Source of the DNA: a virus | Taxonomy: Duplodnaviria; Caudoviricetes | Length of the DNA: 53,011 nucleotides | Direction: 5' to 3' (one strand) | Virus record (IMG/VR): IMGVR_UViG_3300020725_000001 | Span: 1 to 53,011 of that record | Shown: piece after piece, positions 8,778-44,209 of the stretch | Position numbering within the stretch: position 1 is the first letter of the stretch | Layout: the number at the start of each line of letters is the position of its first letter | Made by a program: the position numbers and the translations under genes | The notes under the pieces: generated by a model | Seen by the model: only the letters and a program-made list of their open reading frames with translations | What the model was told of the DNA's origin: nothing | Database searches by the model: none

Positions 8778-11372
8778 ATGTCAGACAACGCGCAATCAGT
8801 CGCATTTAACGAAAATGCCCCACAAGACGAACGCAATGATGCGCTTGCTGAATTGCAAAAGTCCCATAAAACAAATGCTTTAAGCGATCTTATTCCAGCA
8901 GAGGCTGTTAGGGAGGTGATTGCTCATATTCACGAAGGCTATCAGGATGAAGCTATTCGTAAGGCGATGAATCCTAATATTGTTCCATTTCCAAGCAAAC
9001 ATGCTAAGCGCAGAGAAAAAGGTATGCAGTCAATCCAGTTGGATGACTGGCAGCTGTCAGTCAATGGCGACTTTTGGGAACGTCCTAGTGCATTAGGCTT
9101 TGATTCTTTACGCATGATGGTAGAGCAAACGCCTATACTAAATGCTATTGTCATGACTAGGGTAAGGCAGGTACAGCGCTTTGCTAGAGTGACAGAAGAT
9201 AATAGGGATGCGCCGGGCTTTGAAATTAAGCATATTGATAAGTCACATCAACTTAATGATGCTGAGCAAGGCTCTATTCATCAGTTAAACAGATTCATAG
9301 CTAATTGCGGGTGGGAATTTTCACCACGCAGGCGCAAAGCTTTAAGGCGTGATTCATTTGCTCAGTTCTTGGGCAAGGTAACTCGCGACACTTTAATAAT
9401 GGATTCTGTCGGCATAGAGACCGAGTGGAAGCGTGATAAAGCCCAAGGAATGGATGGCTTTTACGCTGTTGACGGTGGCTCAATACGTTTATGTACGGAA
9501 GATGGTTATCGTGGCGATGATGAAATATTTGCGCTTCAAGTTGTGCAAGGAAGAGTCAGTGCAGCTTATAGCTTTGATGATTTGATTTATGAGCCGCGCA
9601 ATCCAAGATCTGATGTCTCTGTATGCGGCTATGGTCTGCCAGAAACAGAATTGCTGGTGCGAGTGGTGACAGGCTATCTAAATGCTTTAACCTATAACAT
9701 TAAAGGCTTTGATCAGAACGCTATTCCTAAGGGTATGTTGCACTTATCTGGCAACTATACTAATCAAGATATAGATGCCTTTAAGCGCTACTGGAACTCG
9801 ATGGTTAAGGGTATCAATAATCAATGGTCATTGCCGGTCATGGTTTCAAAAGATCAAGAGTCTAGGGCGAGCTTTGAGAAATTTGGAGTAGATTATGACG
9901 AGATGTACTTCGGCAAATGGATGACCTTTTTAACCTCTATTGCTTGCGCCATTTATGGTATGTCGCCATCTGAGATTAACTTTGATTCGTTTACTGCCGG
10001 TAGCTCCTCTGCGCTAGCTGGCTCTGATACTGCTGAAAAGCTAGCGGCGTCTAAGGACAGTGGCTTGCGGCCTGTATTAGCTTATTTTGAAAACCTAATC
10101 ACTGATTACATTGTTTCTGATTTTTCAGATAAGTATGTTTTTCGATGGACAGGGCTTGACCCTCAAAACGCTGATGAAAAGTTTGAGCTGCGTAAGCTGT
10201 TATTGACAGTTAATGAGGCTAGGGCAGAGGAGGGCTATGAGGCTATAAAAGGTCCTATGGGTGATGCGCCTTTAAATCCGCAATTAGTAGGGCCATGGAT
10301 GCAATTAACCCAGCAGCAGCCTGAACAGCCAGACTTTGGACAGCCTAGTCAAAGCTCTAGCAATGATAATCAAGGTGAACAAAAAAGCGATACAGTTGAG
10401 AAAAAGCCCGATAGCGATACAGTAGAGCCTGCTCAAGAAGAGCAAGCGGCTGAACCAGCTAAGCCTGCGCAGCCTGCTCAAGGTGCTGAATTAGCAAATG
10501 GTGATGAGGGATTGAGTAAATCATTTGAAGGTCATAAAGGCAGACCAGGGCATCAAGGCGGAAGTCAGGCCAAGTCTTCAACTGATAGTGATGAGGATTA
10601 TTCGGCTCATTTACCAGATTCATCAAAAATTAGCTCACTTGAAGAGGCTGAAAAATACTTTAAAGATAATATTGAAGGAAACTGGGCTATCACCATTAAA
10701 AGAAAGGCTGGGTTATTTGATGCAAAGCTAAATTTTAAGCAAAATCAGGATCATGCTTATACTAAAAAAAATAATGAAACTAATAAAAGGGAGTTTGAGG
10801 CTAAAAGAGCTTCTATGATGCAGTATATGGTGGACTGTATTGCTGATCCAGATGCTATCTTAGAAAACGGTGATAGGGAGATATTTGTAGAAAAAAATAT
10901 TAATGGCGTTAATTATGTGGTTATTCTTAGTTGGTTTGAAAAAGAAAAGGAGTATCGCTTTAGATCGGCTCATTATTGGAGTAATAAGGAATTTGATCAA
11001 AATCGTAAATATTACAAAATGCCAGCTCCAAAAGGCAGGAAGTCCACTAAAAACAAAGCCCCTGAAAGGCTTAGTAAGTCTTTAGGGGCTTTAATCAAAG
11101 ACACTGAAAATTTTGATAAGTCTTTAGTGTCTGCATCCGCACGGTTTTTAGACCTTACGGCCCCGCCCTTACCGATTTACCCGGAATCGCTCCAGCACCT
11201 ATCAGATAGGCTCGATTGGGGACTTGACAGTGACGGCATCCCCCACGAAAGTAATTTTAGATGTATGGCTGATTTTGTCAAGTCTTTGGGTGGTTGGAAT
11301 GAATTTGATTTTGAAAAAACAGAAGAGCTGGATTTTGGAACGCCTACACAAGTTATTTACACGATTGAATGA
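8778..11372 (+). CDS. Portal protein with C-terminal appended putative BECR/PBECR RNase domain
   Basis: Follows terL; YAVDGGSIR, GYGLPETE, PKGMLHL, LTVNEARAEEG portal motifs; acidic linker, then GHKGRPG and HAYTK...R...DPDAIL...FRSAHY. Confidence 0.88.
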   Translation: MSDNAQSVAFNENAPQDERNDALAELQKSHKTNALSDLIPAEAVREVIAHIHEGYQDEAIRKAMNPNIVPFPSKHAKRREKGMQSIQLDDWQLSVNGDFWERPSALGFDSLRMMVEQTPILNAIVMTRVRQVQRFARVTEDNRDAPGFEIKHIDKSHQLNDAEQGSIHQLNRFIANCGWEFSPRRRKALRRDSFAQFLGKVTRDTLIMDSVGIETEWKRDKAQGMDGFYAVDGGSIRLCTEDGYRGDDEIFALQVVQGRVSAAYSFDDLIYEPRNPRSDVSVCGYGLPETELLVRVVTGYLNALTYNIKGFDQNAIPKGMLHLSGNYTNQDIDAFKRYWNSMVKGINNQWSLPVMVSKDQESRASFEKFGVDYDEMYFGKWMTFLTSIACAIYGMSPSEINFDSFTAGSSSALAGSDTAEKLAASKDSGLRPVLAYFENLITDYIVSDFSDKYVFRWTGLDPQNADEKFELRKLLLTVNEARAEEGYEAIKGPMGDAPLNPQLVGPWMQLTQQQPEQPDFGQPSQSSSNDNQGEQKSDTVEKKPDSDTVEPAQEEQAAEPAKPAQPAQGAELANGDEGLSKSFEGHKGRPGHQGGSQAKSSTDSDEDYSAHLPDSSKISSLEEAEKYFKDNIEGNWAITIKRKAGLFDAKLNFKQNQDHAYTKKNNETNKREFEAKRASMMQYMVDCIADPDAILENGDREIFVEKNINGVNYVVILSWFEKEKEYRFRSAHYWSNKEFDQNRKYYKMPAPKGRKSTKNKAPERLSKSLGALIKDTENFDKSLVSASARFLDLTAPPLPIYPESLQHLSDRLDWGLDSDGIPHESNFRCMADFVKSLGGWNEFDFEKTEELDFGTPTQVIYTIE
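11047..11281 (-). ncRNA. Putative antisense RNA unit 1 (promoter, ~200 nt structured RNA, terminator) inside portal 3' end
   Basis: Minus-strand TTGACA (11281-11276), 16 nt, TAAAAT (11259-11254); several hairpins; terminal hairpin 11055-11092 followed by TTTGTTTTT on minus. Confidence 0.55.
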
Positions 11373-12004
11373 TAATGAAAAAAACTAATTTACAACAAAA
11401 ACTACCCATACAAAGCCGAAATGTTATAGATGGCGATGTGCTTTATTTTAAACATCCAGAGCATGGCGCATTATCTGGAAAGGTTCATGCTGTCGGTCAG
11501 CATGGCGTTCAGGTTCTTCATGAAAGCGGCGAGGATGGAGTGGTGCGCGTACCTTGGGCTGATGTGTTGGGGCATAAAGAACGTAGAGCCAGAAAGCTTG
11601 TTTTAGTTGAACGTGGCGAAGATGGCGCTATTGCTGAGGATGAAGATGGTAATCGTGTTTATGTCGAAGGCGAGGTGCCAGAGGAAGAAAAACCACTCAA
11701 TAAAGCATTGCCTAGTGGTGATATTTCAGTGTTTGCGTTGAAAGAGCAAGCGGCCATTGATGCTGCGCTTATTTCTGCTGGATTTGTTCCGTCGATTGAG
11801 TACATACGCAAATCTTATGGTGAGCATTGGAACGAGCCACAAGTGAGTGCAGAAACGATTGCAGAAGCTCCTAAAGTAGACCTAGAGCCGTTGATTAAAG
11901 CGATTGCAGAGATTAAGGCTCATGCTGATATGGCTATTACTAATTTGCGTTCAGAACTAGCGTTAAAGTTAGCGCTTGGGGAAGGGAATGGCGCTGCTGA
12001 TTGA
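11369..12004 (+). CDS. Hypothetical head-associated protein
   Basis: ORF coupled between portal and MuF-like gene; SH3/KOW-like GDVLYF...GKVHAVGQHG. Confidence 0.65.
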   Translation: MIMKKTNLQQKLPIQSRNVIDGDVLYFKHPEHGALSGKVHAVGQHGVQVLHESGEDGVVRVPWADVLGHKERRARKLVLVERGEDGAIAEDEDGNRVYVEGEVPEEEKPLNKALPSGDISVFALKEQAAIDAALISAGFVPSIEYIRKSYGEHWNEPQVSAETIAEAPKVDLEPLIKAIAEIKAHADMAITNLRSELALKLALGEGNGAAD

Positions 12005-14201
12005 TATATCAAATATTCCAGAGTGCTCTTGTGATGGCGCATTAGAGCATCTACACAAAGCACTGAATGATGAAGACGGTTTAGCGCATGATATTTGGGC
12101 GCAACATGAAAGCCCATTTATACGTGAGCTAATCGAAAAGTTTACTGATCGTGGCCTATTTAAGATTGCTAAGGTTCAGGAGGAGTTGAAAAAGTGGCTG
12201 GCAGGCGATTATTACGTTCCTGCTCTAAGGCACACAACAGTTCCTGTAGGTTATATGGGTCGTTGGACACAAGCAGAGCTTGATTTAGTTTATACCTATT
12301 TGCAAAACATACCGCCAGATTTAATGACGCTAAATGATTGGTCTATGCTGATTGATTATACAGTACAGCGATATTTGCCGGCTGATCAACTTAATGAAGA
12401 GGCTGAGTGGCTAGCGGTTAAGTCGGGATTAATGGGAAAGGCGCAAGTGCACATGGACAATATTGATATTGCTGCAGCTGCAACCATTGTTGAGGCATTG
12501 CCTTCGACTGTAGTAGAAGCGGTAACGATGTTTAACCTATCTCCAGCTGCTGAAGCGATTATGGAATATGGCAAGCTTTATGGTTGCGAGAATGTTCAGG
12601 CTGTTTCTGATGGGTTTAGGCATAAGCTTAAGAAGGTCATTTTAAATCATGAGTCAGCTAAGCTATTGAATGATGAGTCGTCTAATGCTCAGACGCTAGA
12701 ACAAGCTTTATTTGATACGTTTTCATCTGCAAATAGAGACTGGCGTAGGATCGCGCTAACAGAAGCCGGTGAAATGGCTAATCAAGGCGTTATTGCTTCA
12801 TTGCCTGCTGGGTCTAAAGTTAGGCGCATGGAAATGTACAGAGGCGCCTGCCCATTTTGTAAAAAGATCGATGGGCGAATTTTTAGCGTGGTTGATCCGT
12901 CCTCTGAAGACAAGGACGGCACTAAGGAAGTTTGGGTAGGTAAAACCAATATAGGCCGATCATCGTCCCCACGAAAGCGTAGCGGTGATGAGTTGGTCGA
13001 GCGACTGCCATCTGAATTATGGTGGGTAGGTGCGGGAGTAATGCATCCCCATTGCTTTATTAATCCAAGGGTTCTAATTTACACAGTGCAGGGTTATAAG
13101 CCAATTTCAGATATAAAAGTTGGTGATTTAGTCTTGACTCACAAAGGAAGATTTAAGCCTGTAAATTGGGTTCTTAGTGGAAAGAAGCATACGGGCAACG
13201 TGATCGGCCTAACATTGGGTACTAAAAATAAAAAGAGAATGCCTTTTACAACTCCAGAGCACCCTTATTTAACATCGAGGGGATGGATTAAGTCAGGAGA
13301 TATAGTTGTTGGCGACAGAATTGTTGCTCTTTCTAAAATATGCCAAGGTTGCGGCAAGCCATTTGTTAATTTAAAGCACCCAAATGTTAATAATTGTGGG
13401 AAATCTTGCGTAGAGCCTAGTGGAAGTAATCAATTTTCTGAGCCAGACACAAGGGACGAGGCTAGGCAGGTTACTTCAGAAGCCAATAAGAAAAGAATGC
13501 GGCTAATGACTGTTGAGCAAAGGAGAGATCTTACTAAAAAGGCAAGAATTTCAGCCAAGGAAAAAGGGTATGAGTGGTTAAGAAGTGACGACGTTAAAAA
13601 AAGATCTGCAATTTCAAATGCAAATAAAAACTATACTCCCAGTGGCATTGAGTTATCTATACACAGAGAGCTTTTAGAGCTTGGTGTAGAGCCTACGCTA
13701 CAACACAGGGTTCTTTCTGGAATGAAAGACATCTCTGGAAGGGTGCGTTACTGGTGGTTAGATATAGCATTGACAGAGCAAAAAATAGCCATAGAGATAG
13801 ATGGCGCTGCTTGGCACAGAAGAGGCGAATTTATCTCAAGAGATGATCGTAGGGATAATGATCTTACTAGCATGGGGTGGACTGTTATGCGATTTGATCA
13901 TGAATTAGCAAAAGCTAACCCTAGTTTTATTGCCCAAGAAATAGCAAGATTGGCTATGAATCATTCTGGTGATTATGTGTTTTCAGACATAGAGGTTACT
14001 GATATTTGTGAAAAGGAGGTTGCAAATAAAAGGCTTTATAACTTTGGTGTTGAAGATGATGAGTCTTACATTATTGGCGGTGGAATTGTAGTGCATAATT
14101 GCCGTGGCCAGTGGGTGGCTATGGATTCGTCAGCTTTTGGTGATGATCCTGAGTTTGCTAGCTTTTTATCCAATTTGTTTAGTCATCAAGAGGGATTGTG
14201 A
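11988..14201 (+). CDS. Head morphogenesis (MuF/gp7-like) protein containing an intein
   Basis: RDWRRIALTE, CPFC and HPH|CRG motif split by an intein. Confidence 0.85.
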   Translation: MALLIDISNIPECSCDGALEHLHKALNDEDGLAHDIWAQHESPFIRELIEKFTDRGLFKIAKVQEELKKWLAGDYYVPALRHTTVPVGYMGRWTQAELDLVYTYLQNIPPDLMTLNDWSMLIDYTVQRYLPADQLNEEAEWLAVKSGLMGKAQVHMDNIDIAAAATIVEALPSTVVEAVTMFNLSPAAEAIMEYGKLYGCENVQAVSDGFRHKLKKVILNHESAKLLNDESSNAQTLEQALFDTFSSANRDWRRIALTEAGEMANQGVIASLPAGSKVRRMEMYRGACPFCKKIDGRIFSVVDPSSEDKDGTKEVWVGKTNIGRSSSPRKRSGDELVERLPSELWWVGAGVMHPHCFINPRVLIYTVQGYKPISDIKVGDLVLTHKGRFKPVNWVLSGKKHTGNVIGLTLGTKNKKRMPFTTPEHPYLTSRGWIKSGDIVVGDRIVALSKICQGCGKPFVNLKHPNVNNCGKSCVEPSGSNQFSEPDTRDEARQVTSEANKKRMRLMTVEQRRDLTKKARISAKEKGYEWLRSDDVKKRSAISNANKNYTPSGIELSIHRELLELGVEPTLQHRVLSGMKDISGRVRYWWLDIALTEQKIAIEIDGAAWHRRGEFISRDDRRDNDLTSMGWTVMRFDHELAKANPSFIAQEIARLAMNHSGDYVFSDIEVTDICEKEVANKRLYNFGVEDDESYIIGGGIVVHNCRGQWVAMDSSAFGDDPEFASFLSNLFSHQEGL
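13053..14099 (+). mobile_element. Intein (349 aa) with DUF559/Vsr-like homing endonuclease
   Basis: Starts CFINPRVLIYT...KPISDIKVGDLVLTHKG, TPEHPYLT block B, ends YNFGVEDDESY...VVHN followed by Cys; internal LDIA...IAIEIDG..WH...GWTVMRF. Confidence 0.92.
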
Positions 14202-14905
14202 TGCTTAAAAAATGCTTAGCAATGGCAGTATTATGTCTGCCATTAACAGTGAGTGCAAAAGGAAGTCATAAGCTTGATACGACGCCAGAGGTTGCAGTTG
14301 GCGCTGTAACTGCTCAAATTGAAGATAACTATTATCACAACACCAATTCATTTGATAGTAATGGTAATTTATTGCCTGTTGATACTGACTATATTAATGC
14401 CACAATTGGTTATTCATTTGATTTTGGGCTGACTGTTCAGGCGGCCACCTATAACTGTCCTATATTTGGTAGAGGTGCTCAAAACTTTGAGTGCGATACT
14501 TACATTAATATTATTCAGCGCTTCAATTTGACAGAGCATTTTGGTGTAAATATTGGATCTCAAAATGGCACAGTCTTTGGTGCACTACCACAATGGCATC
14601 ATGTTGATTTTGGCTTGCTGTCTTATCAAGTCACTAATGATATAGAGATTCATTCTGGCAGTTATTTTGTTAATAGTTATTTGGCAACTATTCCTGTTGA
14701 TGTGATCGATGTAACAACAGGCTTTGTTGTTAAGTTTAATGAGAAATTTAGCTGGGAAATGGATTACTTTGGCGGACATAATAACTTATCAGGTGCGCAG
14801 TTAAACTGGTTTTATAAAAGTTACTATTTGGGTGTGATCATACCTGAATCAGGCTCAGGCAATCAGTATGCAGGTGTAGTAGGTATGCGAATTACATCGT
14901 GGTAG
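14198..14905 (+). CDS. Putative outer-membrane beta-barrel protein
   Basis: Signal peptide MLKKCLAMAVLCLPLTVSA; alternating beta-strand pattern; C-terminal aromatic (GMRITSW). Confidence 0.6.
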   Translation: MMLKKCLAMAVLCLPLTVSAKGSHKLDTTPEVAVGAVTAQIEDNYYHNTNSFDSNGNLLPVDTDYINATIGYSFDFGLTVQAATYNCPIFGRGAQNFECDTYINIIQRFNLTEHFGVNIGSQNGTVFGALPQWHHVDFGLLSYQVTNDIEIHSGSYFVNSYLATIPVDVIDVTTGFVVKFNEKFSWEMDYFGGHNNLSGAQLNWFYKSYYLGVIIPESGSGNQYAGVVGMRITSW

Positions 14906-14919
14906 TTTTGCTTTATTTT

Positions 14920-14936
14920 GGTCGTGACAATACGAT
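14920..14936 (+). promoter_or_regulatory. Putative late promoter GGTCGTGAC-AA-TACGAT
   Basis: Recurrent motif 16 nt upstream of tRNA-Asn. Confidence 0.75.
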
Positions 14937-14952
14937 TAGTCTTGTTAATTAT

Positions 14953-15027
14953 TCCTTGATAGCTCAGTGGTAGAGCGGTTGACTGTTAATCAATTGGTCG
15001 GTGGTTCGAGCCCATCTCAGGGAGCCA
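14953..15027 (+). tRNA. tRNA-Asn(GTT)
   Basis: Cloverleaf TCCTTGA/TCAGGGA, anticodon loop CTGTTAA, TTCGAG T-loop, encoded CCA. Confidence 0.93.
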
Positions 15028-15096
15028 AAAAAAACGGCAATGCTGGAAGTCGGTAATGACCATGCGGATTCATGGACAAAGACAGTGTAATTTATA

Positions 15097-15172
15097 GGGG
15101 TCATAGCTCAGCTGATAGAGCGCTTGCCTTGCACGCAAGAGGTCGGGAGTTTGATCCTCCCTGGCTCCACCA
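15097..15172 (+). tRNA. tRNA-Ala(TGC)
   Basis: GGGGTCA/TGGCTCC acceptor with G3:U70, anticodon loop CTTGCAC, encoded CCA; atypical A19/U56. Confidence 0.88.
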
Positions 15173-15200
15173 TTATTAAAACTATTTATGACATATAAGT

Positions 15201-15401
15201 TTGTTAAAGCTCCTGATGAATATCCAGGGAAGATTTATACATGCGGCAAAAAATAATGACAGGAGCTTGAACTATGAAATAGTTGCAAGGCTTGAAGCGT
15301 CTCTTACAGTTGGGAATGATTTTGAGGGACTAAGTCCTGAACAAGCTCAGGCTGTAAAATTAATTATTTCTCAATTTAAGCAGGTCAATCCTGCTCAATA
15401 G
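15201..15401 (+). CDS. Arc-family ribbon-helix-helix protein (start uncertain, possibly frameshifted)
   Basis: AAKNNDRSLNYEIVARLEASL. Confidence 0.6.
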   Translation: MLKLLMNIQGRFIHAAKNNDRSLNYEIVARLEASLTVGNDFEGLSPEQAQAVKLIISQFKQVNPAQ

Positions 15402-15429
15402 ATGCTCGAAACATTTGGGGTGCGTCAAA

Positions 15430-15681
15430 TTAAAGCAACTTCACCAATGCCGCAATTACAGCCACTTGCGCCATCATTAAAGCGCCTACCCATTTAACAA
15501 TATCAACTTTAAGTTCAAGAAGGTCAGTCTTAGAGGCTAGTGGTGCTATATCATTCTTAGTAGCTAACTCGCTTTGCGATTTTTTAAGAACAGCAATCAC
15601 TGTTTCTGATTGTTTTCTAGTAAATCCACTAGTTTCAAGTTCGTTAACTAATTCGTTGGTATCAAAAGTAATCGTTGTCAT
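15430..15681 (-). CDS. DUF1640/CCDC90-like protein (moron)
   Basis: MTTITFDTNE...SGFTRKQSE...LATKNDI...IVKWVG...AALVKLL. Confidence 0.85.
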   Translation of the reverse strand: MTTITFDTNELVNELETSGFTRKQSETVIAVLKKSQSELATKNDIAPLASKTDLLELKVDIVKWVGALMMAQVAVIAALVKLL

Positions 15682-15790
15682 CGCTATAGCTCCTTAAGAT
15701 AATTTTATCAACATACCGAAACGGTTGTGGGTTGTCAAATATCCACGTCCTACCATTTTATGTTTTGCATTTAATTGTTAGCTTGTCTTA

Positions 15791-15807
15791 GGTCGTGACA
15801 CCAGAAT
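15791..15807 (+). promoter_or_regulatory. Putative late promoter GGTCGTGAC-AC-CAGAAT
   Basis: Recurrent intergenic motif. Confidence 0.75.
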
Positions 15808-15828
15808 TTAACAAATCAATTAAATTTA

Positions 15829-16113
15829 ATGGGTAGTGTTATGGCGACTGAAAGAGCAGTGGATGTTTCAAAAAAAATAGATTCTAAGTTTAAGGCTGGG
15901 GTAAGTGGTAATCCGCTGGGCAGACCTAAGCAGACCGAAGAAATTAAAATGGCTAAGGTTAGAGATGCTTTAGATAAAAACATTGTCGCAATTTTTTATA
16001 AGGTTTTAGATAGTGCGCTTGCTGGCGATATTCAGGCGGCAGGGTTAATATTTGAAATTTATGGCTTATCAAATCGTATTTTAGATGTTAAGCCTGACTT
16101 AAACGCGAAATGA
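15829..16113 (+). CDS. DUF5681-like (TerS-type) small protein
   Basis: KFKAGVSGNPLGRPK motif; ALAGDIQAA. Confidence 0.65.
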   Translation: MGSVMATERAVDVSKKIDSKFKAGVSGNPLGRPKQTEEIKMAKVRDALDKNIVAIFYKVLDSALAGDIQAAGLIFEIYGLSNRILDVKPDLNAK

Positions 16114-16117
16114 TATT

Positions 16118-16519
16118 ATGAGTAATTCATCAGAAAAAGATCATCCTTTTGTTGTAGGCAAGGCAGATTGCAAGGGAAATCCTGAAAAAGCATCGTCATT
16201 AAAGTTTGCTGGCCGCGAGTATCATGCCTCAGGCAAGTCCGGCAAATCAATTCACGACGATACACCGGTGCGTGAGTTTGAGCATGAAAGCGGACATAAG
16301 GTCTGGATGGATGATGCTGCGCGTGTTCATGCTAATAATGAGGATGAAGTTGATAGCTTGCGCCAAGATGCAGATAAGGGGCTGACTGAAGATACTAGCA
16401 AAACTGACAGCCAAGTTGATGGCAAGCGTCCAGGTAAAGACATTCCAGAGAAAATGACAAAGGCTTTGTTCTTTATGTCTGCTGATCAATCAGAGTTGTT
16501 TTTAAATCTGATTGATTGA
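16118..16519 (+). CDS. Hypothetical protein (putative head-internal)
   Basis: ORF; C-terminal MTKALF motif. Confidence 0.55.
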   Translation: MSNSSEKDHPFVVGKADCKGNPEKASSLKFAGREYHASGKSGKSIHDDTPVREFEHESGHKVWMDDAARVHANNEDEVDSLRQDADKGLTEDTSKTDSQVDGKRPGKDIPEKMTKALFFMSADQSELFLNLID

Positions 16520-16523
16520 GTTT

Positions 16524-19500
16524 ATGGCGCCCTTGATACTTTTATTTAAGTCCCACGTCAAAGGCTATACGCGTAAGGATGGGCATTATGTTAATCCTTA
16601 TACAAAAGATAACTCAGGAAGGCATGGGGTTCAGCACAGAGTTCCAGTAAAGAATAGTGTGCTTCAGTGGGCTGGGTTGGGCTTAAATCCCGTTGTTGCA
16701 GATTATTTTAAATTGCATACAAAGCATTCTGATCAATTTCCTGACGAAGCCTCTATGAGATCTCATGTTCAGTGGGTTATGGAGCATCCGCATGTATTTA
16801 TGCCAGCTACAAAAGATGGATATGTGATGTTTGTTCGTCGCGGAGCTTTAGACAAGTGTGTAGTTATTAACCCTGTTGTCAAGGGTGGGGCGAATGGATA
16901 TGTAGTTAGGTCAGCGTATATAATGAATGAGGATCAGCTAAAATCTTACATTAAAGCAGTATTCAAGTATCGAAAATATAACGTAAAAATTAGAAAGTCA
17001 ATCAGCGTCGGGGCGCTAAGTCCGAGCTTCTTGTCCGGTTCCGAATTATCAGAGCGATCAACAAGGTGGCTCCCCATTTCTCACGAAAAGGTTCAACTGA
17101 TTGCAAAATGCAATTTACCTGAAGATAGCAATTTAATCAAGTGGATGATTGAAAGCGGAATTAATTATAAAAATACAAGCTTTACTAAATCAGATATATC
17201 AATGGATAGGTACAGTTCACCATATGAGCTATCAGAATATCAAATAAAATCAGGCAATTATAAAAAACGATCAATTTCGTGGAATGGTTTGACTATCAAG
17301 ATAGAGAATGAGGCCGGGTCAGTTCGTAGCGGCCAAGATCCTAATGGCAAATTATGGGAAGTTCGCATGATTTACCCTTATGGTTATGTTAGTAATTCAA
17401 CGGGGGTTGATGGTGATGAGGTTGATATATATTTGGGCTTTAATCTTAATGCGCCAATAGTTTACATTGTTCACCAGCGAAAGGTGGGGGACTGGTCGGA
17501 ATACGACGAAGATAAGTGCATGATCGGCTTTGATTCTGAGGATGACGCAAGACAAGCATTTTTGCATCATTATGATGATCCTCGTTTTTTGGGCGAAATA
17601 ACAGCTATGTCTGTTGGCGAATTTGTTGATAAAGTAAAAGCCACCAACAAAAAACCAGCTATGATTAAAGCTTTGCCTGTAACTTTGTCAGAAAGGCTTG
17701 CTAAGGCTGGCTTTATCTGGCGTGAAGTACCCTTTACTCGTGAGTCATGGGATGGCGAGTTCCCAGGCAATATGGTTAAGTCGTTCATGGGTGATTTGAT
17801 AGAACTTCTCCCTGAAACGCTAGATTATCCTGACTATGGCTCATCACTCATTGGCGCATTAAAGCCAACAATAGAAAGCCCATTAATTATTCATCATGAG
17901 GTAGGTCAGGCTTCTTTTTTTCGAGCAATAATTAACGCAGACGGCTCAATACTAGGCTACTCTAAAGTAACGCTATGGAAAGGTTTTTCTCGTGTTGAGA
18001 TTATTCAAGATTTACCGGCTCTTGAAGGGTGTATTGACCATGGCATTAATGTCATTGCTGATTTCGTTGATGAGGGTCATGCCGTATTTAAATGCCTATC
18101 GCTGGGTAAATTTCTTGTCACTGATTTTGGTATCGCTTCACATTTAATGGATTGGGGTGTTGAGTTCTTTAAGTCTGATCATGGCGCTATACCAGATGGC
18201 GCAAGATGGATAACGGTTCATCCAAACGGCGAAGGCTCTAAAGGTGTTCCAATATTGGTGCAGCCTGCCAAGGATAATTCAGGTACGTTCCGAGTGGTGG
18301 GCGGCGCAGGTGGCAAACTTAATATGCTTAAGTTACGCGGTGTTAAGTCTGAAGCTGATTATAAACAGGAGCATTCAGAGCGTGCGCACAATAAACGATT
18401 AGTCGACAAAGAGCGTATAAGGCGTGATAAAGAGCTAGGCATACATGATGCAAAGACTCAGGCCAAAGAAAATATTAATGCTCAACGAAAGAAGTCGCAA
18501 AAAGATTTTATCAAAACTGTTGCTGATGCTATGGGTTGGAAGCATGAAGAAACAGAGCTAAATACATCCGGATTGTCAGAGCAAGCCGCTAAAAAGGCAG
18601 AGCTTAAGCATCATGCGGAATTATTGACCAGGGCTAAGGAAGCTGTCAATGTACAGCGTAAAATGCTGGTTGATAATGCTGATGCGCGGGCAGCTGCTGG
18701 TCTGGGCGTAATGCCGCTACATGATGAAAATGCGGCTTTAATTTCTGCTGATGATCTTGATCCGGTTCGTTTAACTGACAAGTCGGGTATTTCTCAAGAT
18801 TTTAAAAAGCGCGCTGAAAATGCTGGGCTGACGCAAGATAGTCTTGATTCAAAAGTCAGCGAAACCAAGACGACTGGCAAGACGGATGCACAAATTGAAA
18901 GAGGCCAGATAGCGCAAGATATTAAAGACGAGTTATCAAAGCTGCCAAAACCTGACTTAAATGCAAAAATAGTTGATGCTAAAAAAGCTGTTGAGCTGAT
19001 CAAGGCGCAAAAGAAATTAGCGGCCATGGAAAAAGCTGCGCGTGATGCAAACAAGGAGGTTAATAAAGCGACTGTAGAGCCTAAAGCCTATGTGTTAGCA
19101 ACCTCTGAGCCTGATGATAAGGTCGCGCTTAAGGCGATACATGACGATTTAAGTACATCTAAGGCCAAGGCCTTTTTAGCAGGTGTGCAAGCAGTAGGTG
19201 GAGAGGAGTCAATAGAAAGTCATGTCTCTACGGGCGCATATAATGTTATTAATGCGTTATCCCATGCAGTAGGCGGTGATTCTCTAATGGATAGATCAGT
19301 TATCGACGTGTTAGGAATTGCGGGCGCTGCTCAAGTGCTTGCAAGGCGTTTGCATTCTGATTACAAAGATAAGACTGATGATATTGCCAGCGGCGTTGAG
19401 GAATATCATGTGGCACATGCTCCGGAGTTACAGAGCGAAGCCCTAGCACAGGCTCAAGAGCTGCAGGACATAGCTAACAAGATTGAAATGGATCAGGCCG

Positions 19501-22500
19501 CAAACTCGCAAGACTTTGCTCATGCCTCTGGGCTGAATCATCAACGTAAAGAGCATTTAGCAACAGCACGTAAAGTCATGGGGCAAGCTCTAGGAGAAAT
19601 GGAAGCAAATGCGGCTATTTCTGCGGCACTGCGCGGTGGTAAGCGTGACTTTGTTCAGGTGTCCTTGGGCAAGTCTACATCAGAATCAGCTGTACAACAG
19701 CTATGGGCTTTGGGCTTAAATAATGACGACTTTAATCTGGATAAGGTGGCCGGAAATACTTTTGCAACCATTAAAGCTTCTGGCATGGACAAGCTTGCTA
19801 AACCTATCGACAAAGAGAATATGCAGCGTATAGATCGCAATCTATCTATTATGCGTGGTGATGAAGATGAGGATGATTGGCTGCCGCAAGGCTTCTCTAA
19901 GCGCCCTGACTTGGGTCTTAATTTTAAAGCTGGAGTTGCTCCGCAGCTATCGCAGCCTTTTGATGCTAAAGGTTCTAATTTAGCAGATTCAGTGCGTGAG
20001 TATATTGGTGGTCGCATGGCTGATGGGGATAGACCAGCTGATATATTGTCGGATCTAAATTCCTTGCCCTTTATGCTATCGGTGGGTGCTGATCGAGCTT
20101 CTGAATACAGAAAAGCCCTTAATGAGGCTATCCCTACTAAGAATTTTAATGGTAAGTTAATGCGAGTCGAGCATTTAGAACCCATATTTCAGCAATACGC
20201 TGATGATTATGTGGCTTCTAAATGGGGCGGTACGCGTTCAACGCTTAATAAACAAACCTTTGAGCCTGATGCGATTGCACAAGATGCGCTGCATAGGGCA
20301 TTAGCGTCTGAGCCTGCCGGTAAGATTGCTTATAAGCCTATTGGTGAGCTAACAGCGCAAGATCGATCAGCCTTGCGCAATTGGTTTTATAAAAATGTTG
20401 CTAAAGAATCACCAGAGCAAGCAGGGTTGCGTGAAAAAGCTGACAATCTTCAAAAGAATGAGCCCATTAAATTTACTGAGGATCTGTTTGGCGAGGTTTC
20501 GGAAAATCCAGCCTGGAAAGCATGGAAGAGTGACTACGATGAAGCGAGTGCAGTTGCGGCTGATGCGGGTTTAGATTGGGGTAAATACTCGCATTTAATG
20601 CGAGGTAGTGTTAGGGCTTTTGAGTCTATACAAGATTTAATCCGCTCAAAAGTCTCAGAGAGCTTTGCGCAAAACTATAATACACAACGTCCTGATGCTG
20701 CGTTAAAGATCGGCAAGACTATTGTAAGAAACAATCTTAATCATCTTGATGCTGTTGATCCTACTGAGCGTGAAAAGCGGCTAAAGGCTGAGCGTTCACT
20801 TATTGATTCTTTACGAGAGCGAGTACAAGGAAAATATTCGTCTGGATCTGTAGGCGACAAGATAGAGCAAGCCAAAGAGAAGCAAGCGGCTTATGGTCAA
20901 GCGCAGATGTCTTTATTTTCGTCTGAAGAAGATGACAATAAGGAGGCGCTAGCTTTAAAAGCGGATGAACGCAAAACCATAGGCCACGCCGCTGAAAACA
21001 TGATCAACAAAATGATGGGGGTAGTCGGTGCTAATTTTGAGCCTAATAAGCCAGTCAAGTTATTTAATCCGTCGATGTCCGGACCTGATGGCGTAAAGCG
21101 ACAAAGAGCCATCAAGCTAGTCGAAGCCAATAAGCGCGTAATGCTTGGGGCCGGAGTGGGTTCAGGCAAATCAGCTATGATGCTGGGCGCATTTTCTAGC
21201 CTGCATTCACAAGGCAAGATAAAAAAAGGCGTGATCTGCTGCCCAAGTATCGTGCAAGGACAAATGGGTGCTGAAGCCTTGCGCTTCTTAGAGGCTGGTA
21301 AATACAACTGGCATTGCAATCCTGGCGATTCCTTTGAAAGCCGTCTTGCTTCTTATAAAGATCCAGATAACCATTTTACCGTAGTCACACATCAATCTTT
21401 TCGTGATGATCTACTAAAAATGGCAAGTCTAAAGACCGGCGAAAGCACTGATGTAATTGCTGACAAAATGGGCGGCATGACGCAAAAGGAAAGGGCGAGC
21501 TATACCAAGGATGTGCTAGATCACCACGGCATTAACTTTGATTTCTCTGCGGTTGATGAAGGGCATAACCTGTTAGATCGTGAAGGTAAAGAAAACTCAC
21601 GCATGTCTAATGTGATTGGTGGGGTAACCGATAATACGCCTTACCATATTTCAGCAACAGCTGATCCTGTTAAAAATGATGCTTCTGAGGCATTTAGTGC
21701 GCTACAAAAGATGGACGGCGACCGTTATAACGATCGTGATGCGTTCATGCGGCGTTATGGTAGCGATACCCAAGCCGCTAAGCAGGGTTTGCAGAAAGAG
21801 TTAGCTAGGCATTTGTACGCTATGGAAGTTAAGCCAGATATTAGTGTGAACAAGCAACAGATTAAGGTGCCACAAACCGAGGCGCAACAAGAGGCACTGA
21901 AGACCGTAGAACAGCAAGCCGCTAGCTTACGCATTGCTAAAATGACTAATCAAGTCGATATAAAGACAGCTCAAGCTTTTGCACCCGCCATGTTTGATGG
22001 TGTACCAGAAGACCAGCATGAAGCCGTTGCAAAAAAGGTCGCTGATTCAGTCGGTATCATGAAGCAATCAGCTATTCGCAAGGTGCTAGATAATCATCCT
22101 GCTGCAGGAAAGCTTAATAAGTTGATTGAGATAGCTAATGGTAAGAAAGGACAGCAAGGCGTGGTCTTTGCTCACTCACTAGAGGCGGTCGAGAGCATTA
22201 GAAAGCGTTTAGAAGCAGAGGGTCATCGAGTCGTGACTATCTCCGGCAAGGATTCAGCAAAAGATAAGGCGGCAAAGATACAGGCCTTCAATCCTGATAA
22301 GGGCGATGCCAAAGCCGATATTATTGTCTGCTCTGATGCAGGAGCTACTGGCGCAAACCTTCAATCTGGTCGTTGGCTTGCGCAATATGATATTCCTCAG
22401 ACTGCTATGAACCACGCGCAACGTCAAGGCCGTATCAATCGAATTGGTCAAAAGAACGACATTGATTTAATTGATCTGGTTTCAGACCATGAATCAGATA

Positions 22501-22646: not shown

Positions 22647-22662
22647 GTCGTGACTAAATACT
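22646..22662 (+). promoter_or_regulatory. Putative late promoter GGTCGTGAC-TA-AATACT
   Basis: Recurrent motif upstream of methyltransferase. Confidence 0.7.
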
Positions 22663-22694
22663 ATCCCATTAAATAATATTATGGGGTTTACGGT

Positions 22695-23441: not shown

Positions 23442-23445
23442 TTAA

Positions 23446-23721
23446 TCAGGCTACCTCTAATAATATTTCAGGGTATTTTTCTGCTACTCTCAGCAGAGTT
23501 TTAGCTGCCCCTGATGGTTGTTTACGGCCTTGCTCCCAGTCTTGCAATGTACGTACTGACACGCCTAATAATTTGGCAAATTCAGATTGCGATAGTCCTA
23601 GAGACTTGCGGGCGACTATGGCAGGGGAATGTACTATAACACCTTGCCCTGCTGCCATTTCTTTTGCGGCTGCTAATAGCTTTTCGCCTAGTTCTTTGCC
23701 AGTCATAAAATCGTTATTCAT
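23446..23721 (-). CDS. Xre-HTH antitoxin (HigA-2/NadS-like), orphan
   Basis: ARKSLGLSQSEFAKLLGVSVRTLQDWEQGRKQPSGAAKTLL. Confidence 0.88.
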   Translation of the reverse strand: MNNDFMTGKELGEKLLAAAKEMAAGQGVIVHSPAIVARKSLGLSQSEFAKLLGVSVRTLQDWEQGRKQPSGAAKTLLRVAEKYPEILLEVA

Positions 23722-36685: not shown

Positions 36686-36687
36686 AT

Positions 36688-39111: not shown

Positions 39112-39117
39112 ATCGTC

Positions 39118-39948: not shown

Positions 39949-39957
39949 GACTAAACC

Positions 39958-40206
39958 ATGGTTAATGCTGACAAACAGGGCGCTGTTATAGCGCCAGCTA
40001 TTCAAAGTGTTGTTTTAAATGCAACCTCTGTAAATGATGAGTTCCCCTTGTCACTAGACGAATTTTGCTCACGTTTATCATCATCTGATAAGCGCGTCGA
40101 AATGATTGGCGCTTTTCATCACACTGAAAAAGCAGCCGGTCGTAATAAAGATATTGAGTCAGCTTATATAGCTCGTTACTCAGATTTCATCAATCAGCCT
40201 GCATAA
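39958..40206 (+). CDS. Hypothetical protein
   Basis: Small ORF preceding sheath. Confidence 0.55.
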   Translation: MVNADKQGAVIAPAIQSVVLNATSVNDEFPLSLDEFCSRLSSSDKRVEMIGAFHHTEKAAGRNKDIESAYIARYSDFINQPA

Positions 40207-40219
40207 GAAGGGGCATAAA

Positions 40220-41929
40220 ATGAGTGTATTTTTTAATGGAAGATTATGGGTTTCGCCCGTAACTGCATCGGTTGTTGATGACTCTGCAATGAATAACACC
40301 AATGTTGGCGTAAGCAATGTCTTAGCTATCATTGGTAAATCTGAAGGTGGACAGCCTTTTACAGCGCTAAGCTTTGGTTCTGCAACAGAAGCAAGAGCAA
40401 CATTGATTTCAGGAGAGTCACTAAAAGCTATTGAGAATGCTTTTGATCCTTCTGCACAAACAACTGGACCATCAACCATCATTTTTGTACGCGTTAATCC
40501 TGCATTGCAATCCAGTTTAAATTTGTTAGATGCAAATGGTAATGTGGCAATTAATCTTGTGTCGCAAGACTGGGGTCTGCATACTAATGGCATAAAAGTT
40601 AAGATTGAATCTGCATCTTTGGTCGGCAGCAAGGTAACTAGCCAATTTGGCAATAATTATTATTCTGCTGACAATATCCATAAGAATGCTTTAAGTGTTC
40701 ATTATACTGGAGCTGCTGCTACAGCGACTATTGCTATTAATGCAGATACAGTTACTTTGGTTTATGACTCAACAACAACAGCCATTGACTTAAATACCTA
40801 TAAAACAGTTGGAAGTCTAGTTGATAGAATCAATGCAGAGGCTGGTTTTTCTGCTGCTGTATTGGATGGTAATATTGAGACGCCTGCTTTAAATGGACTT
40901 GATTTTGTAGCTGCTCAAGATGTTAAATCTACTTCATTCACTGTGACTGGAAACTTGCAAGCTATAGTTGATTGGATGAATAGCATGGGCGAAGGTTATG
41001 TAACTGCAACTCGTGCAATTAATGCTGGCTTAGTTCCTGTCAATATTCCATTCAGTTATTTAACTGGCGGCACTGATGGCATGGTAACCATGAATGAATG
41101 GCAACAAGCTTATGATGCTCTTCAATCTGTAGATGCTCAATGGGTAGTGCCTATCTCTTCAAATCCTGCACTTCATGCTATGAATGATACGCATTGTTCT
41201 TATATGTCAAACATTGCACGCATGGAAAGACGCGGCATTGTTGGTGGTGATATAGGTACAACAGATCTGCAAGCCATTGCTGCCGCAAAAATGCTGAACA
41301 GCGATAGAACTTCTTATACGCATCTAGGTTTTTATGATTATGATGTGAATGGTAATCTAACACTATACCCTCCTTATATTATGGCTGGATTGTTAGCCGG
41401 CATGTTCTCAGGTGTTAACCCTGGCACTGCTTTGACAAACAAAGAAGTAAAAATAAGAGGCATCGAGCGTAGTCTGCGCAATCCTACTGATACTGATATT
41501 TTAATTAATGGCGGTGTATTGTGTGTTGAAAACACCAAGAAAGGCTATAAGGTTGTTAAATCGATCACTACTTGGCTGATTAACAACAATTATAACCGTG
41601 TTGAGGTTTCAGTCGGTGTGGCTTGCGACTTTACATCGAGAGCAGTAAGAGATGCGGTTGATGATTTGCGCGGTGCTAAAGGTTCGCCATCATTATTGGC
41701 TGATGCTGTATCGAGAGCTGAAACAGCTCTTAGACAGCTATCTGTTCCTGAGCCTATGGGTCCTGGCGTTCTTGTTGGTGACAAATTAAACCCTCCATAC
41801 AAAAATATTACAGCGACTTTATCGGGCGATGTGTTACGTATCGAGTATCAAGCAAGCCCAGTTATTCCAGCTAACTACATCTTGTTAGTGATGCACGCCG
41901 TACCTTACTCTGGATCTGCTAGTTTGTAA
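40220..41929 (+). CDS. Tail sheath protein
   Basis: LAIIGKSEGG, YLTGGTDG, ALTNK, LINGGVLCVE, VVKSITTW; 569 aa. Confidence 0.9.
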   Translation: MSVFFNGRLWVSPVTASVVDDSAMNNTNVGVSNVLAIIGKSEGGQPFTALSFGSATEARATLISGESLKAIENAFDPSAQTTGPSTIIFVRVNPALQSSLNLLDANGNVAINLVSQDWGLHTNGIKVKIESASLVGSKVTSQFGNNYYSADNIHKNALSVHYTGAAATATIAINADTVTLVYDSTTTAIDLNTYKTVGSLVDRINAEAGFSAAVLDGNIETPALNGLDFVAAQDVKSTSFTVTGNLQAIVDWMNSMGEGYVTATRAINAGLVPVNIPFSYLTGGTDGMVTMNEWQQAYDALQSVDAQWVVPISSNPALHAMNDTHCSYMSNIARMERRGIVGGDIGTTDLQAIAAAKMLNSDRTSYTHLGFYDYDVNGNLTLYPPYIMAGLLAGMFSGVNPGTALTNKEVKIRGIERSLRNPTDTDILINGGVLCVENTKKGYKVVKSITTWLINNNYNRVEVSVGVACDFTSRAVRDAVDDLRGAKGSPSLLADAVSRAETALRQLSVPEPMGPGVLVGDKLNPPYKNITATLSGDVLRIEYQASPVIPANYILLVMHAVPYSGSASL

Positions 41930-41942
41930 TTGATTGGCATCT

Positions 41943-41970
41943 AAAAAAGCCCTCCTAGTGAGGGCTTTTT
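41943..41970. terminator. Bidirectional intrinsic terminator
   Basis: AAAAAAGCCCTC-loop-GAGGGCTTTTT. Confidence 0.85.
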
Positions 41971-42004
41971 ATTATTATTTTAATGCTTTAATTTTAGTTT
42001 AAGA

Positions 42005-42021
42005 AGTCGTGACAGCAACAT
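42005..42021 (+). promoter_or_regulatory. Putative late promoter AGTCGTGAC-AG-CAACAT
   Basis: Recurrent motif after terminator. Confidence 0.7.
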
Positions 42022-42052
42022 AATCAGAATTTATTCTTTTTATGGTGCGACC

Positions 42053-44209
42053 ATGACTATCATCCTTTTGAGCAAAGCATTTGTTAAAGAACATCAACGT
42101 CACAAAAAAGATGGTTCCGTTTATACAGTTTTGGCGCATTACAATAAGCGTGTTAAGAAAAATACCGAACATGCACCAGAACACGGTCATGATCTTAGCC
42201 ACTTAAATGATGATGACAAGGCACGTTTTAATCAAATGCACGCTGAGCAACATTTAGCTAAGCATTATGATGAGCACGCGATTAAGCAGCAGTTACAAGA
42301 CAGTAGGGCTGAGCACGACAAGCTTATTCGAGATGCTGATGTACAAGACAAGTTGGGAGATCATAAGGCTGCAACTAGGCTACGCAACAAGGCGATTAAA
42401 GTTAATCAGCACATGATGCGCTTTCAGCGGCAATTATCCAAACTAGAAGAGACAATACAAGGTATTGGTAAAATGAAGGAGAAGTTAGTCGCAGGAAGCG
42501 GTGAATTAGTTCATGATGCGGCGGCTCATGCACATTATGTGAGTAAGCTAGGAGCTAAGTTTAAAGGCCGCATTATGTTCATTAAAAAGGTCACAAAACC
42601 TAAGCAGCCTTTTATACCGACTCATACGCTATCAGATGGCGTGCCTGCCAGGCATGTTGAAGGCAATATTTATATCGATAAAGACGGCGATGAGGTGCAA
42701 GATTATTATGCTGAGCCGGTTGATAAAATAGATGATTCAAAGGGTAGCGATAAGGTAGACCCTCATAGTTTTATCACTGCGCCTGATGGCTCAAAAGACT
42801 TTGGTGAAATTACATCAGAGCAAGCTGAAAAAATAGGAAATAAATCAGGGAAAATAAGGCTACAGCAAGGATTTCATAATGATGATGACGGTAGTGGATA
42901 TGGAAAGATTCATATTGACAGGGAATTGAGGAAAGATCAGCTTAAAGACAATGGTTATCAGTCGACAGAAGAATTAGTCGATGACGTTGCTAAAAACCAT
43001 AATGCTATCTATCAAGGCAAGGGAGGTTCATATATTTTAGCTAAGCTAAATGGTAAGGCTAAAATAGCTTATGTACTGGTTAAGGAAGGTAACGATGGTA
43101 TTTTTTACAGTATTGGAAGCGGTTTAGTTACAAGAGATGGTTATCTTAAAAACAAGCCGTTGCTTTGGGAAAGGGCGCAGACCAATCAACTCAAAGAGTC
43201 CCCTAGCGCGGTCACAGGCAAAAGCAACGGCCCGAATAAAACTATACCCCAATTACCAAAAAATGCAACAGAAAAAGACAGTCCCAAAGAAGGCGAGCGC
43301 AACGCCGAGGGCTTGGTGTTCCATGATGGGCGCTGGCATAGGGAAGGCGATAATGCGGATAAGAGCGCAAGATTCCATGCAGACATTAAAGCTCTGAAAG
43401 AAACAAATTTTAAATACAAAGCAGGTGATAAGGTAATTGACAAAGAATCTGGTAAAAAATATATGGTGTTAAGCTCATATATTCAAGATGGACAGGTTAG
43501 ATATACTGTTTATCCTCCAGGCAAAAAATCATCTGTTGGCCACCATATTTGGATTAAAGAGTCTGACTTGGTTAATAGTGGGAATGATGAAGCCAAAAAA
43601 CCAGCCAAGGTTGTTTCTATCAAAGAGGTTGCTCGTAAGCCTGAAGCTGAAAAATTAGCGGATGAAGACAATCCCAATAGCCCTAACTATCGATTCCGTG
43701 ATACTGGCTATATAGGCGGCAGTCGTAAAGAAGATGCGGCGTTAATGATTAGGTCTGCGGCTAAAGGCGGGGTTTTAGTCAGATCAACAGCCATTGACTG
43801 GGACGAGATAGAAAAAAATCCACGGGAAGCGCATCAGTTAATCACTAAATCAAATTTGTTCGGCAAAGTAGATTGGGATAGTTTAAAAGTAGAGGGTATG
43901 GAGCCTAGCGCCGGATTTTTAGTTGATAGAGTCTATGCTAGCGTCGCTAAAGAACCGGAAGATAATGCGCCTATGCGTAAGGATTATGCAGTGGGTATAG
44001 AAACTCTGCGTGATCGCATGGAGGCATGCAAAACACCTGATGAAGTCGTTAAGGTGCTTGCTGAGATTAGGGGCGAATATGAAGGCACTATGCTTTCTGC
44101 TACTGAGTCAGAGGAATATCAAAAGGCCAATGATGAAGTAAACAGGCTTCGTGGCATATTAAGAGCGGCTAATGATGAAAAAGATGTTTTTTTTTCAGAG
44201 ATGGTATAG
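42053..44209 (+). CDS. Polyvalent protein, N-terminal part (putative BECR RNase, KOW-like domain); frameshifted at T9
   Basis: LLSKAFVKEH..HKKDG; IRLQQG...GYGKIHID; YKAGDKVID; ends just after T9 at 44187-44195. Confidence 0.75.
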   Translation: MTIILLSKAFVKEHQRHKKDGSVYTVLAHYNKRVKKNTEHAPEHGHDLSHLNDDDKARFNQMHAEQHLAKHYDEHAIKQQLQDSRAEHDKLIRDADVQDKLGDHKAATRLRNKAIKVNQHMMRFQRQLSKLEETIQGIGKMKEKLVAGSGELVHDAAAHAHYVSKLGAKFKGRIMFIKKVTKPKQPFIPTHTLSDGVPARHVEGNIYIDKDGDEVQDYYAEPVDKIDDSKGSDKVDPHSFITAPDGSKDFGEITSEQAEKIGNKSGKIRLQQGFHNDDDGSGYGKIHIDRELRKDQLKDNGYQSTEELVDDVAKNHNAIYQGKGGSYILAKLNGKAKIAYVLVKEGNDGIFYSIGSGLVTRDGYLKNKPLLWERAQTNQLKESPSAVTGKSNGPNKTIPQLPKNATEKDSPKEGERNAEGLVFHDGRWHREGDNADKSARFHADIKALKETNFKYKAGDKVIDKESGKKYMVLSSYIQDGQVRYTVYPPGKKSSVGHHIWIKESDLVNSGNDEAKKPAKVVSIKEVARKPEAEKLADEDNPNSPNYRFRDTGYIGGSRKEDAALMIRSAAKGGVLVRSTAIDWDEIEKNPREAHQLITKSNLFGKVDWDSLKVEGMEPSAGFLVDRVYASVAKEPEDNAPMRKDYAVGIETLRDRMEACKTPDEVVKVLAEIRGEYEGTMLSATESEEYQKANDEVNRLRGILRAANDEKDVFFSEMV
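43148..43268 (-). ncRNA. Putative antisense RNA unit 3 inside the LPD1 polyprotein gene
   Basis: Minus-strand TTGCAT (43268-43263), 16 nt, TATAGT (43246-43241); perfect 11-bp inverted repeat GCCGTTGCTTT (43156-43166)/AAAGCAACGGC (43221-43231), then TTGTTTTT. Confidence 0.55.

Follow-up and report, generated by a model that had tools for sequence, protein, structure and literature searches.

The stretch of DNA analysed here, which we refer to as the window, is the complete 53-kb viral contig IMGVR_UViG_3300020725_000001 (53,011 nt, Caudoviricetes), the plus strand of which carries nearly all of its genes. Three of these genes each contain an RNase-like module: a portal gene (8778–11372, plus strand), the gene of a 2044-aa polyvalent protein with InPase and SNF2/helicase parts (16512–22646, plus strand) and the gene of a 718-aa protein (42053–44209, plus strand). 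A preliminary description of this DNA had proposed that every one of these nuclease modules has its own RNA inhibitor, encoded antisense to the codons after the module, and we refer to the three arrangements as units 1, 2 and 3 in the order of their genes. The proposed arrangement is borne out for unit 1 in the portal gene and is plausible for unit 3 in the gene of the 718-aa protein, but not for unit 2 in the polyvalent protein gene.

The portal protein (864 aa; Phage_portal, E = 1.1e-10; phrog_12, E = 2e-45) ends in a PBECR-type domain and a conserved tail, and its residues 600–864 have homologues (P0006–P0009) that are 59–91% identical. The RNase-like domain, of the PBECR2/3 type, spans approximately residues 610–750 (10605–11030, plus strand), and unit 1 lies in the roughly 80 codons after it. 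Read on the minus strand, these codons contain a sigma-70-like promoter, TTGACA-16-TAAAAT (11254–11281; 11 of 12 consensus positions), the −35 hexamer of which falls within the FVK codons of the tail. At the 3′ edge of the domain, 170–205 nt from the promoter, there follows on the same strand a hairpin with the shape of an intrinsic terminator (11054–11093), succeeded by a T-run (11053–11045); the plus strand of this hairpin encodes KAPERLSKSLGA. With a stability of −17.8 kcal/mol and TTTTT after it, the hairpin ranks second among the minus-strand terminator-like hairpins of the window. Between them, the conserved promoter and terminator would delimit an antisense RNA of about 200 nt (11045–11247, minus strand; 170–205 nt in relatives), with its predicted start just downstream of the promoter. 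The consensus fold of three close relatives over this region reaches −67.1 on the minus strand versus −52.7 on the plus strand, with three double changes. A second hairpin, AGACACT...AGTGTCT (11099–11132), is confined to the window and two of its relatives, L004 and L005, and is present in both consensus folds; the 8-codon segment that forms it is missing from a second group of relatives, L006, L008 and L010. The predicted transcript contains no small open reading frame (ORF) that the antisense promoter could drive: a 34-aa minus-strand ORF (11177–11281) begins upstream of the predicted start, and a 30-aa ORF (11012–11104) reads through the terminator.

All hexamers, stems and T-runs that the preliminary description had listed for the three units were found in their places, and only those of unit 1 exceed chance. 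The cut-off of our promoter scan was 9 of 12 matches to the sigma-70 consensus, and the candidate promoters of units 2 and 3, with 8/12 each, are not above chance: the minus strand of the window contains 334 sites with at least 8/12, about one per 159 nt, and 4 sites with at least 11/12. The z-scores for folding of the whole RNA were −1.99 for unit 1, −0.49 for unit 2 and −1.59 for unit 3. When nothing but the window is considered, unit 1 is therefore the only unusual one, with its strong promoter and its second-ranked hairpin. Permissive Rfam scans of the units returned no match at gathering score and 9, 3 and 0 sub-threshold rows for units 1, 2 and 3, respectively. In agreement with the earlier observation that the three RNAs share no sequence, a covariance model of unit 1 found only a single copy in the window; homologues of the unit 1 hairpin behind the modules of units 2 and 3 were thus rejected.

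Relatives of unit 1 were collected by a peptide scan of metagenome contigs that was keyed on the domain and not on the hairpin (contigs L003–L011), and an energy scan together with the covariance model added two further copies, L006d and L008-2. This resulted in ten distinct copies: one each in the window, L004 and L005, four in tandem in L006, two in L008 and one in L010. Single-protein scans of viral contigs gave no relative for units 1 and 2, and neither did a scan of genome contigs with the domain alignment. Of the matches to the hairpin pattern, two in genome contigs (L021 and L022) were dismissed as chance and one in viral contigs (L019) as unrelated. The hairpin is present in all ten copies, including every copy from the domain-keyed peptide scan, and in all ten it has the GC-rich stem-loop and U-tract of an intrinsic (Rho-independent) terminator, the T-run following it on the minus strand only. 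The TTGACA hexamer is likewise kept in 10/10 copies, again on the minus strand only, and is followed at 16–17 nt, within the 16–18 nt spacing of sigma-70 promoters, by TAAAAT or AATACT. Promoter scores are 11/12 in the window, L004 and L005 and 10/12 in the copies of L006, L008 and L010, and within positions 11900–15100 of L006 the antisense promoters of the four copies outrank every other promoter-like site. As a rule, antisense promoters are not conserved (PMC3419515).

That stretch of L006 is a single gene in which four PBECR-type domains follow one another in tandem about every 730–760 nt, and each has a hairpin and an antisense promoter of its own; contigs L007, L014, L017 and L020 are listed with L006 for this tandem four-domain gene. 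The unit 1 RNA unit is therefore duplicated together with the domain, as a cassette.

Covariation analysis of the nine copies that could be aligned supports a stem that is maintained as such. Across 16 base pairs, 94.4% of the 144 cells pair, and seven of the pairs show double changes (14 cells). None of 500 shuffles reached the values of unit 1 on any of five measures, and controls in which the alignment was slid paired in 26–58% of cells. Codon usage points in the same direction. In the domain, 0 of the 11 invariant residues with four-fold degenerate codons use a single codon, whereas in the stem all three do (Ala GCC, Gly GGG and Ala GCT), and the third base of a Pro codon in the stem covaries with its partner (T-A, A-T and G-C). 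The Val codon within the −35 hexamer is GTC in every copy. These frozen codons are rare in the phages concerned, GTC accounting for 11–31% of Val codons and GGG for 10–25% of Gly codons. In L006d and L008-2 even the amino acids have changed, from KAP...SGA to ISP or IPP...LGE, and the stem is still perfect, with −25.0 and −23.8 kcal/mol and z-scores of −6.3 and −4.7, respectively. Among the protein relatives, P0009, P0010 and P0011 carry the stem-region peptides KTPERLKKSLGV, KTPVRLTKSSGA and TPPKRLIKSLGE. From the covariation, the frozen rare codons and the amino acid changes that leave pairing intact, we conclude that the unit 1 hairpin is selected as a nucleic acid. The molecule under selection would be the minus-strand RNA, since the U-tract and the conserved −35 hexamer belong to that strand and since, within the stem, cells that read as G-U on the minus strand outnumber those that read as A-C by 11 to 3.

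Several observations weigh against this reading, and the first of them concerns the choice of strand. The hairpin can form on both strands, and that of the window is more stable on the plus strand (−20.6) than on the minus strand (−16.2). Together with an A-run 5′ of the hairpin on the plus strand, the tandem duplication of the cassette, the mosaic nature of the region and the fact that nucleotide similarity between the window and the L006–L010 group stops exactly at the hairpin (11090/11091), this would fit a hairpin that acts on the sense strand or as DNA, for instance in mRNA processing or stability, in ribosome pausing or as a recombination signal of the cassette, with the TTGACA being incidental. 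A function of this kind would account for neither the restriction of the T-run to the minus strand in 10/10 copies nor the G-U excess on that strand; it would also leave the rare GTC codon at the −35 Val of every copy, and the −10-like hexamer at 16–17 nt from TTGACA in all ten, as coincidences. The A-run, moreover, does not represent a conserved slippery site: in its place AATAACAAA is found in L004 and L005, and the spacer to the hairpin is 0–2 nt, for which reasons we rejected a programmed frameshift. We therefore consider a sense-strand or DNA function unlikely as the main explanation.

A second set of opposing observations concerns background. Promoter-like sites are not enriched around the units, with 29 found versus 33.7 expected in 8700–23500 and 11 versus 14.6 in 40000–46000; the whole-RNA fold of unit 1 scores no better than the z of −1.99 given above; the AATACT −10 hexamer of the L006/L008/L010 group is weak; and use of the sigma-70 consensus for the host is itself an assumption. 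The promoter–hairpin patterns might also be no more than what AT-rich coding DNA yields when searched by eye, and the site counts at or under expectation, the density of minus-strand sites with at least 8/12, the fold z-scores from −0.49 to −1.99 and the lack of a gathering-score Rfam match in any unit would all be compatible with there being no RNA genes here at all. For unit 2 this is a good fit. For unit 1 chance is excluded by the covariation and the frozen rare codons in 10/10 copies, and for unit 3 it is improbable given 53 of 54 identical nucleotides and a compensated stem (see below), so that as an account of all three units it is very unlikely.

The remaining opposing points concern the history of the portal tail. 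The tail is conserved as a protein as well, ending in DFVK..W, and for this reason its nucleotide conservation is partly protein-driven. Covariation outside the terminator is scarce when the two groups of copies are compared, and the ten copies derive from a limited range of metagenomic phage contigs, with perhaps 4–5 independent lineages among them. Compared with L005, codons 757–835 of the portal gene are identical more often than the others (53/62 versus 364/638, p = 5e-6), a difference that is confounded by mosaicism; compared with L004, the same codons are more diverged than the rest of the gene. Reduced synonymous divergence was therefore rejected as proof of an RNA, because the cassette has a recombination history of its own. 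Within the putative RNA region (window 11170–11215), L004 differs from the window by two single-base indels about 35 nt apart, between which its tail is read in another frame, giving PIYPESLQHLS in L004 and TNLPNDLLAPE in the window, i.e. a compensated frameshift.

Unit 3 is a real conserved element and probably a second RNA of the same kind as unit 1 and unrelated to it. It comprises a structured element in which an 11-bp closing stem (43156–43166 pairing with 43221–43231, minus strand) encloses a conserved core; TTGTTTTT comes next on the minus strand. When the window was compared with 9 kb of the contig L001, nucleotide similarity was confined to an 82-nt piece (87.8%) at this site; the core (43162–43215) is identical at 53/54 nt, and the adjoining domain is approximately 41% identical in protein. 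The arms of the L001 stem differ from those of the window yet remain complementary: in an alignment read by eye 10 of the 11 pairs are kept, and there are three double changes as well as one G-U if the minus strand is read. Both elements share the same predicted fold architecture, with the 11-bp stem included, and both have a T-run on the minus strand. A third relative, L010 (4628–5074), lacks the core and has complementary arms and a T-run; its predicted fold makes no use of the arms, and a closing stem of the unit 3 type was rejected there. What speaks against the antisense gene proposed for unit 3 is its promoter-like sequence, TTGCAT-16-TATAGT (43241–43268, minus strand), which with 8/12 is weak and under the scan cut-off. 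At the corresponding place L010 has TTGCTT-16-TATATT, as read by eye, and L001 has no such sequence. P0014 and P0015 retain the peptide encoded by the element in an altered form.

Recent phage recombination, which would leave short shared tracts at module junctions, could also account for the near-identity of the unit 3 core and for the small number of synonymous differences in the unit 1 tail. The history of the C-terminal portal cassette does differ from that of the portal body, a whole N-terminal module of the polyvalent gene is swapped in L005, and L010 has no core and ignores its arms in the predicted fold; in addition, P0014 keeps RAQTNQ..SAV with changes, so that the peptide itself is under selection. 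On the other hand, a 54-nt exchange tract without any other similarity in 9 kb would be unusual, the differing and still complementary arms of the window and L001 (three double changes in the by-eye reading) speak against exchange, and the covariation of unit 1 would be left unexplained. Recombination thus seems quite unlikely as the source of both signals, although for unit 3 it has to be taken seriously, and we continue to regard unit 3 as a probable second example.

For unit 2, the proposed promoter and RNA (16985–17140, minus strand) are indistinguishable from chance. The sequence TTGATT-17-TAAATT is present and, with 8/12, lies under the scan cut-off, and the CAATCAG/CTGATTG stem appears in the predicted fold of the RNA, which has a z-score of −0.49. 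The only relative DNA, in L004, differs at 1 of 381 positions, and comparison with the protein relatives P0017 and P0020 shows the linker to be a conserved protein segment. Unit 2 is hence a domain with no credible RNA gene. The linkers had been described as being of odd composition; the segments after the domains of units 1 and 2 are in fact conserved as protein and are not mere spacers.

The RNase character of the three modules had initially been assigned by eye, and profile and fold searches support a BECR-like nature in each case, with matches to BECR-type toxins for units 2 and 3 (Z 5–7.5) and to PBECR2/3 (Pfam PF18810/PF18812) for unit 1. Of the three, unit 1 has the best case for family membership, by way of a relative: the domain itself scores 18.6–20.3 bits against PBECR3, under the gathering cut-off of 30, whereas P0004, which is 56% identical to it, passes with both PBECR2 (40.2 versus a cut-off of 27.1) and PBECR3 (36.1 versus 30). 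The alignment of the unit 1 domain shows an invariant HAYT, R and EYRF.S.H, and its relatives are found in other portals and in polyvalent proteins. The unit 2 domain (16635–16961, plus strand), at the N-terminus of the polyvalent protein, has 64 relatives, many of them within proteins of 2000–4000 aa. Its model (pLDDT 87.3) has seven matches with Z of at least 5, namely CdiA-CT (6.5, 5.9 and 5.1), two entries of colicin D (6.4), a chain of a Salmonella toxin–antitoxin complex (5.9) and BrnT (5.5); all seven are RNase toxins or chains of toxin–antitoxin complexes, and every Z is below 8. Foldseek ranked BrnT first for this model (probability 0.95, E = 0.058). The unit 3 domain (42770–43165, plus strand) has no Pfam match, and its model, built from five sequences with a pLDDT of 65.1, matches CdiA-CT (Z 7.5, 5.9 and 5.5), BrnT (5.4), the Salmonella toxin–antitoxin complex chain (5.2) and colicin D (5.2). 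Comparison by hhalign connects unit 2 to the unit 1 family (E = 4.1e-5, probability 70%) and unit 3 to unit 2 (E = 2.6e-4, probability 42%), and was not significant between units 3 and 1. The assignments made by eye are therefore reasonable, and the three modules look like BECR-type RNase domains.

In L005 (9286–10593), the N-terminal module of the polyvalent gene (window 16582–17697) gives way to a gene of its own, 435 aa long and with other domains, the product of which has only its first ~20 residues in common with the polyvalent protein of the window.

On balance, we favour the reading that unit 1 represents a true transcription unit for a small antisense RNA inside the portal gene, most likely acting in cis, that unit 3 is probably a second one and that unit 2 is without an RNA gene. 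Host RNA polymerase would then make a non-coding RNA fully complementary to the mRNA just 3′ of the RNase-coding part. Such an RNA would most likely act in cis, in the manner of lambda OOP RNA or of the 3′-overlapping type I antitoxins. By pairing with leaky late mRNA, it would either trigger cleavage of that mRNA or block elongation, so that levels of the packaged RNase would stay low except during the lytic burst. That the RNA binds the RNase directly is the less likely alternative.

The closest parallel is OOP of phage lambda, a short RNA that is antisense in cis and has a promoter (pO) and a terminator (tO) of its own, the terminator being situated inside the 3′ part of the coding region of its target, cII, as set out in PMC5869508, which credits the RNase III-dependent cleavage of the target to Krinke and Wulff. 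Like OOP, the predicted unit 1 RNA is a short phage-encoded cis-antisense RNA with a promoter of its own, and it is this OOP-like arrangement that leads us to favour antisense control of the RNase-bearing message. Unlike OOP, unit 1 lies wholly inside one reading frame, its promoter included, and after the RNase domain of a virion protein; it is copied with the domain up to four times in one gene. In the type I systems txpA/RatA and bsrG/SR4, toxin mRNA and antitoxin are convergent RNAs that overlap at their 3′ ends, with a constitutive-looking promoter and an intrinsic terminator. By its cis-antisense position the predicted unit 1 RNA would similarly be complementary to the 3′ region of a candidate toxin message. 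It differs from both type I systems in that it overlaps the tail after the domain and in that the candidate toxin, instead of being a small hydrophobic peptide, is a soluble-looking BECR-like domain of a portal fusion of 864 aa.

Type III systems (ToxIN and its relatives) consist of an endoribonuclease and a structured RNA of tandem repeats that is encoded upstream of the toxin on the same strand. The preliminary description had preferred a type III-like reading, in which each folded RNA binds and inhibits the protein of the neighbouring RNase domain. An endoribonuclease-like domain partnered with a predicted structured RNA is common ground between the two; the RNA unit is always found with an RNase-like domain and is duplicated with it, and the lack of shared sequence between the units is what would be expected of domain-specific partners. 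The comparison breaks down over the defining features of type III, as there is no tandem repeat in any unit, the RNA is antisense and downstream instead of upstream on the same strand, and the domains are BECR-like and not ToxN-like. In addition, the body of the RNA outside the terminator is poorly conserved between the groups, which would be odd for a protein-binding fold. Inhibition by direct binding is, in our judgement, decidedly unlikely, and antisense action in cis remains the mechanism that we prefer for unit 1.

A broader generalisation, which we put forward tentatively and hold to be rather unlikely, is that PBECR-type cassettes carry an antidote RNA gene that is antisense to the codons after the domain and travels with it, amounting to a toxin–antitoxin design within a single reading frame, of which units 1 and 3 would be unrelated examples. 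Host cells receive RNases and other effectors from polyvalent virion proteins, and PBECR domains are not known to have immunity proteins. If real, a small RNA gene within the codons behind the domain would explain how the producer cell or lysogen tolerates a packaged RNase. It would also show that dual coding, in which one strand specifies protein and the other a promoter, an RNA and a terminator, can persist through long divergence, with amino acids even being exchanged so that a stem is preserved. Phage small RNAs would moreover gain a class that is invisible to ordinary annotation. Synonymous changes in the promoter or the stem would provide a simple handle on PBECR domain function. Fusions of PBECR domains with portal proteins, with MuF proteins and with large polyvalent proteins packaged in the virion have been described, in mosaic and duplicated architectures (Iyer et al. 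2017, PMC5512222); in contrast to the present proposal, antisense RNA is mentioned nowhere in that account. The literature searched contained no paper that joins PBECR with antisense, and a search on MuF toxins and phage antisense RNA gave nothing relevant in titles or abstract beginnings among the matches listed.

Several further features of the window and its relatives are of note. The preliminary description had treated the gene carrying unit 3 as that of an LPD1 polyprotein. In the window this region consists of two ORFs, 42053–44209 and 44172–45836, which overlap in different frames (44170–44210) and of which the latter carries LPD1; in the relative P0016 the two form one continuous protein, 98% identical across the junction, so that the single gene exists there and not in the window. 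The change of frame sits at a T-run and may be a frameshift, a slippage site or an assembly error.

A motif of the form hydrophobic-x-K-[S/A] occurs on both sides of the domains in several proteins of the window (8778–45836; LSKSF, RLSKSL and IRKSI) and also in relatives (MRKAL and MRKSF), and is compatible with protease-processing sites. Hairpins as a general companion of this motif were rejected on the basis of 69 sites (p = 0.32 on the plus strand and 0.72 on the minus strand).

Three RNAs of the window have Rfam 15 matches at gathering score: two tRNAs and a C4 antisense RNA. The C4 RNA (RF01695, 55.8 bits; 952–1039, plus strand) lies directly 5′ of the gene of a Rha-family regulator (1090–2094, plus strand), a combination that we take to resemble the immunity region of P1/P7-type phages. 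Because of this resemblance, the arrangement suggests that the phage is temperate or has a plasmid-prophage lifestyle. The two tRNA genes, Asn-GTT and Ala-TGC, are located at 14953–15172. The tRNA-Asn is 96% identical over 55 nt to its counterpart in SSU5-like phage-plasmids of enterobacteria and was the sole match in a megablast search of the window against phage and plasmid records. Finally, a segment of about 1 kb (13055–14098) inside the gene at 11976–14201, with Hint and DUF559/endonuclease matches, is missing from the close relatives L004 and L005 and looks like an intein or homing-endonuclease insertion particular to this phage.

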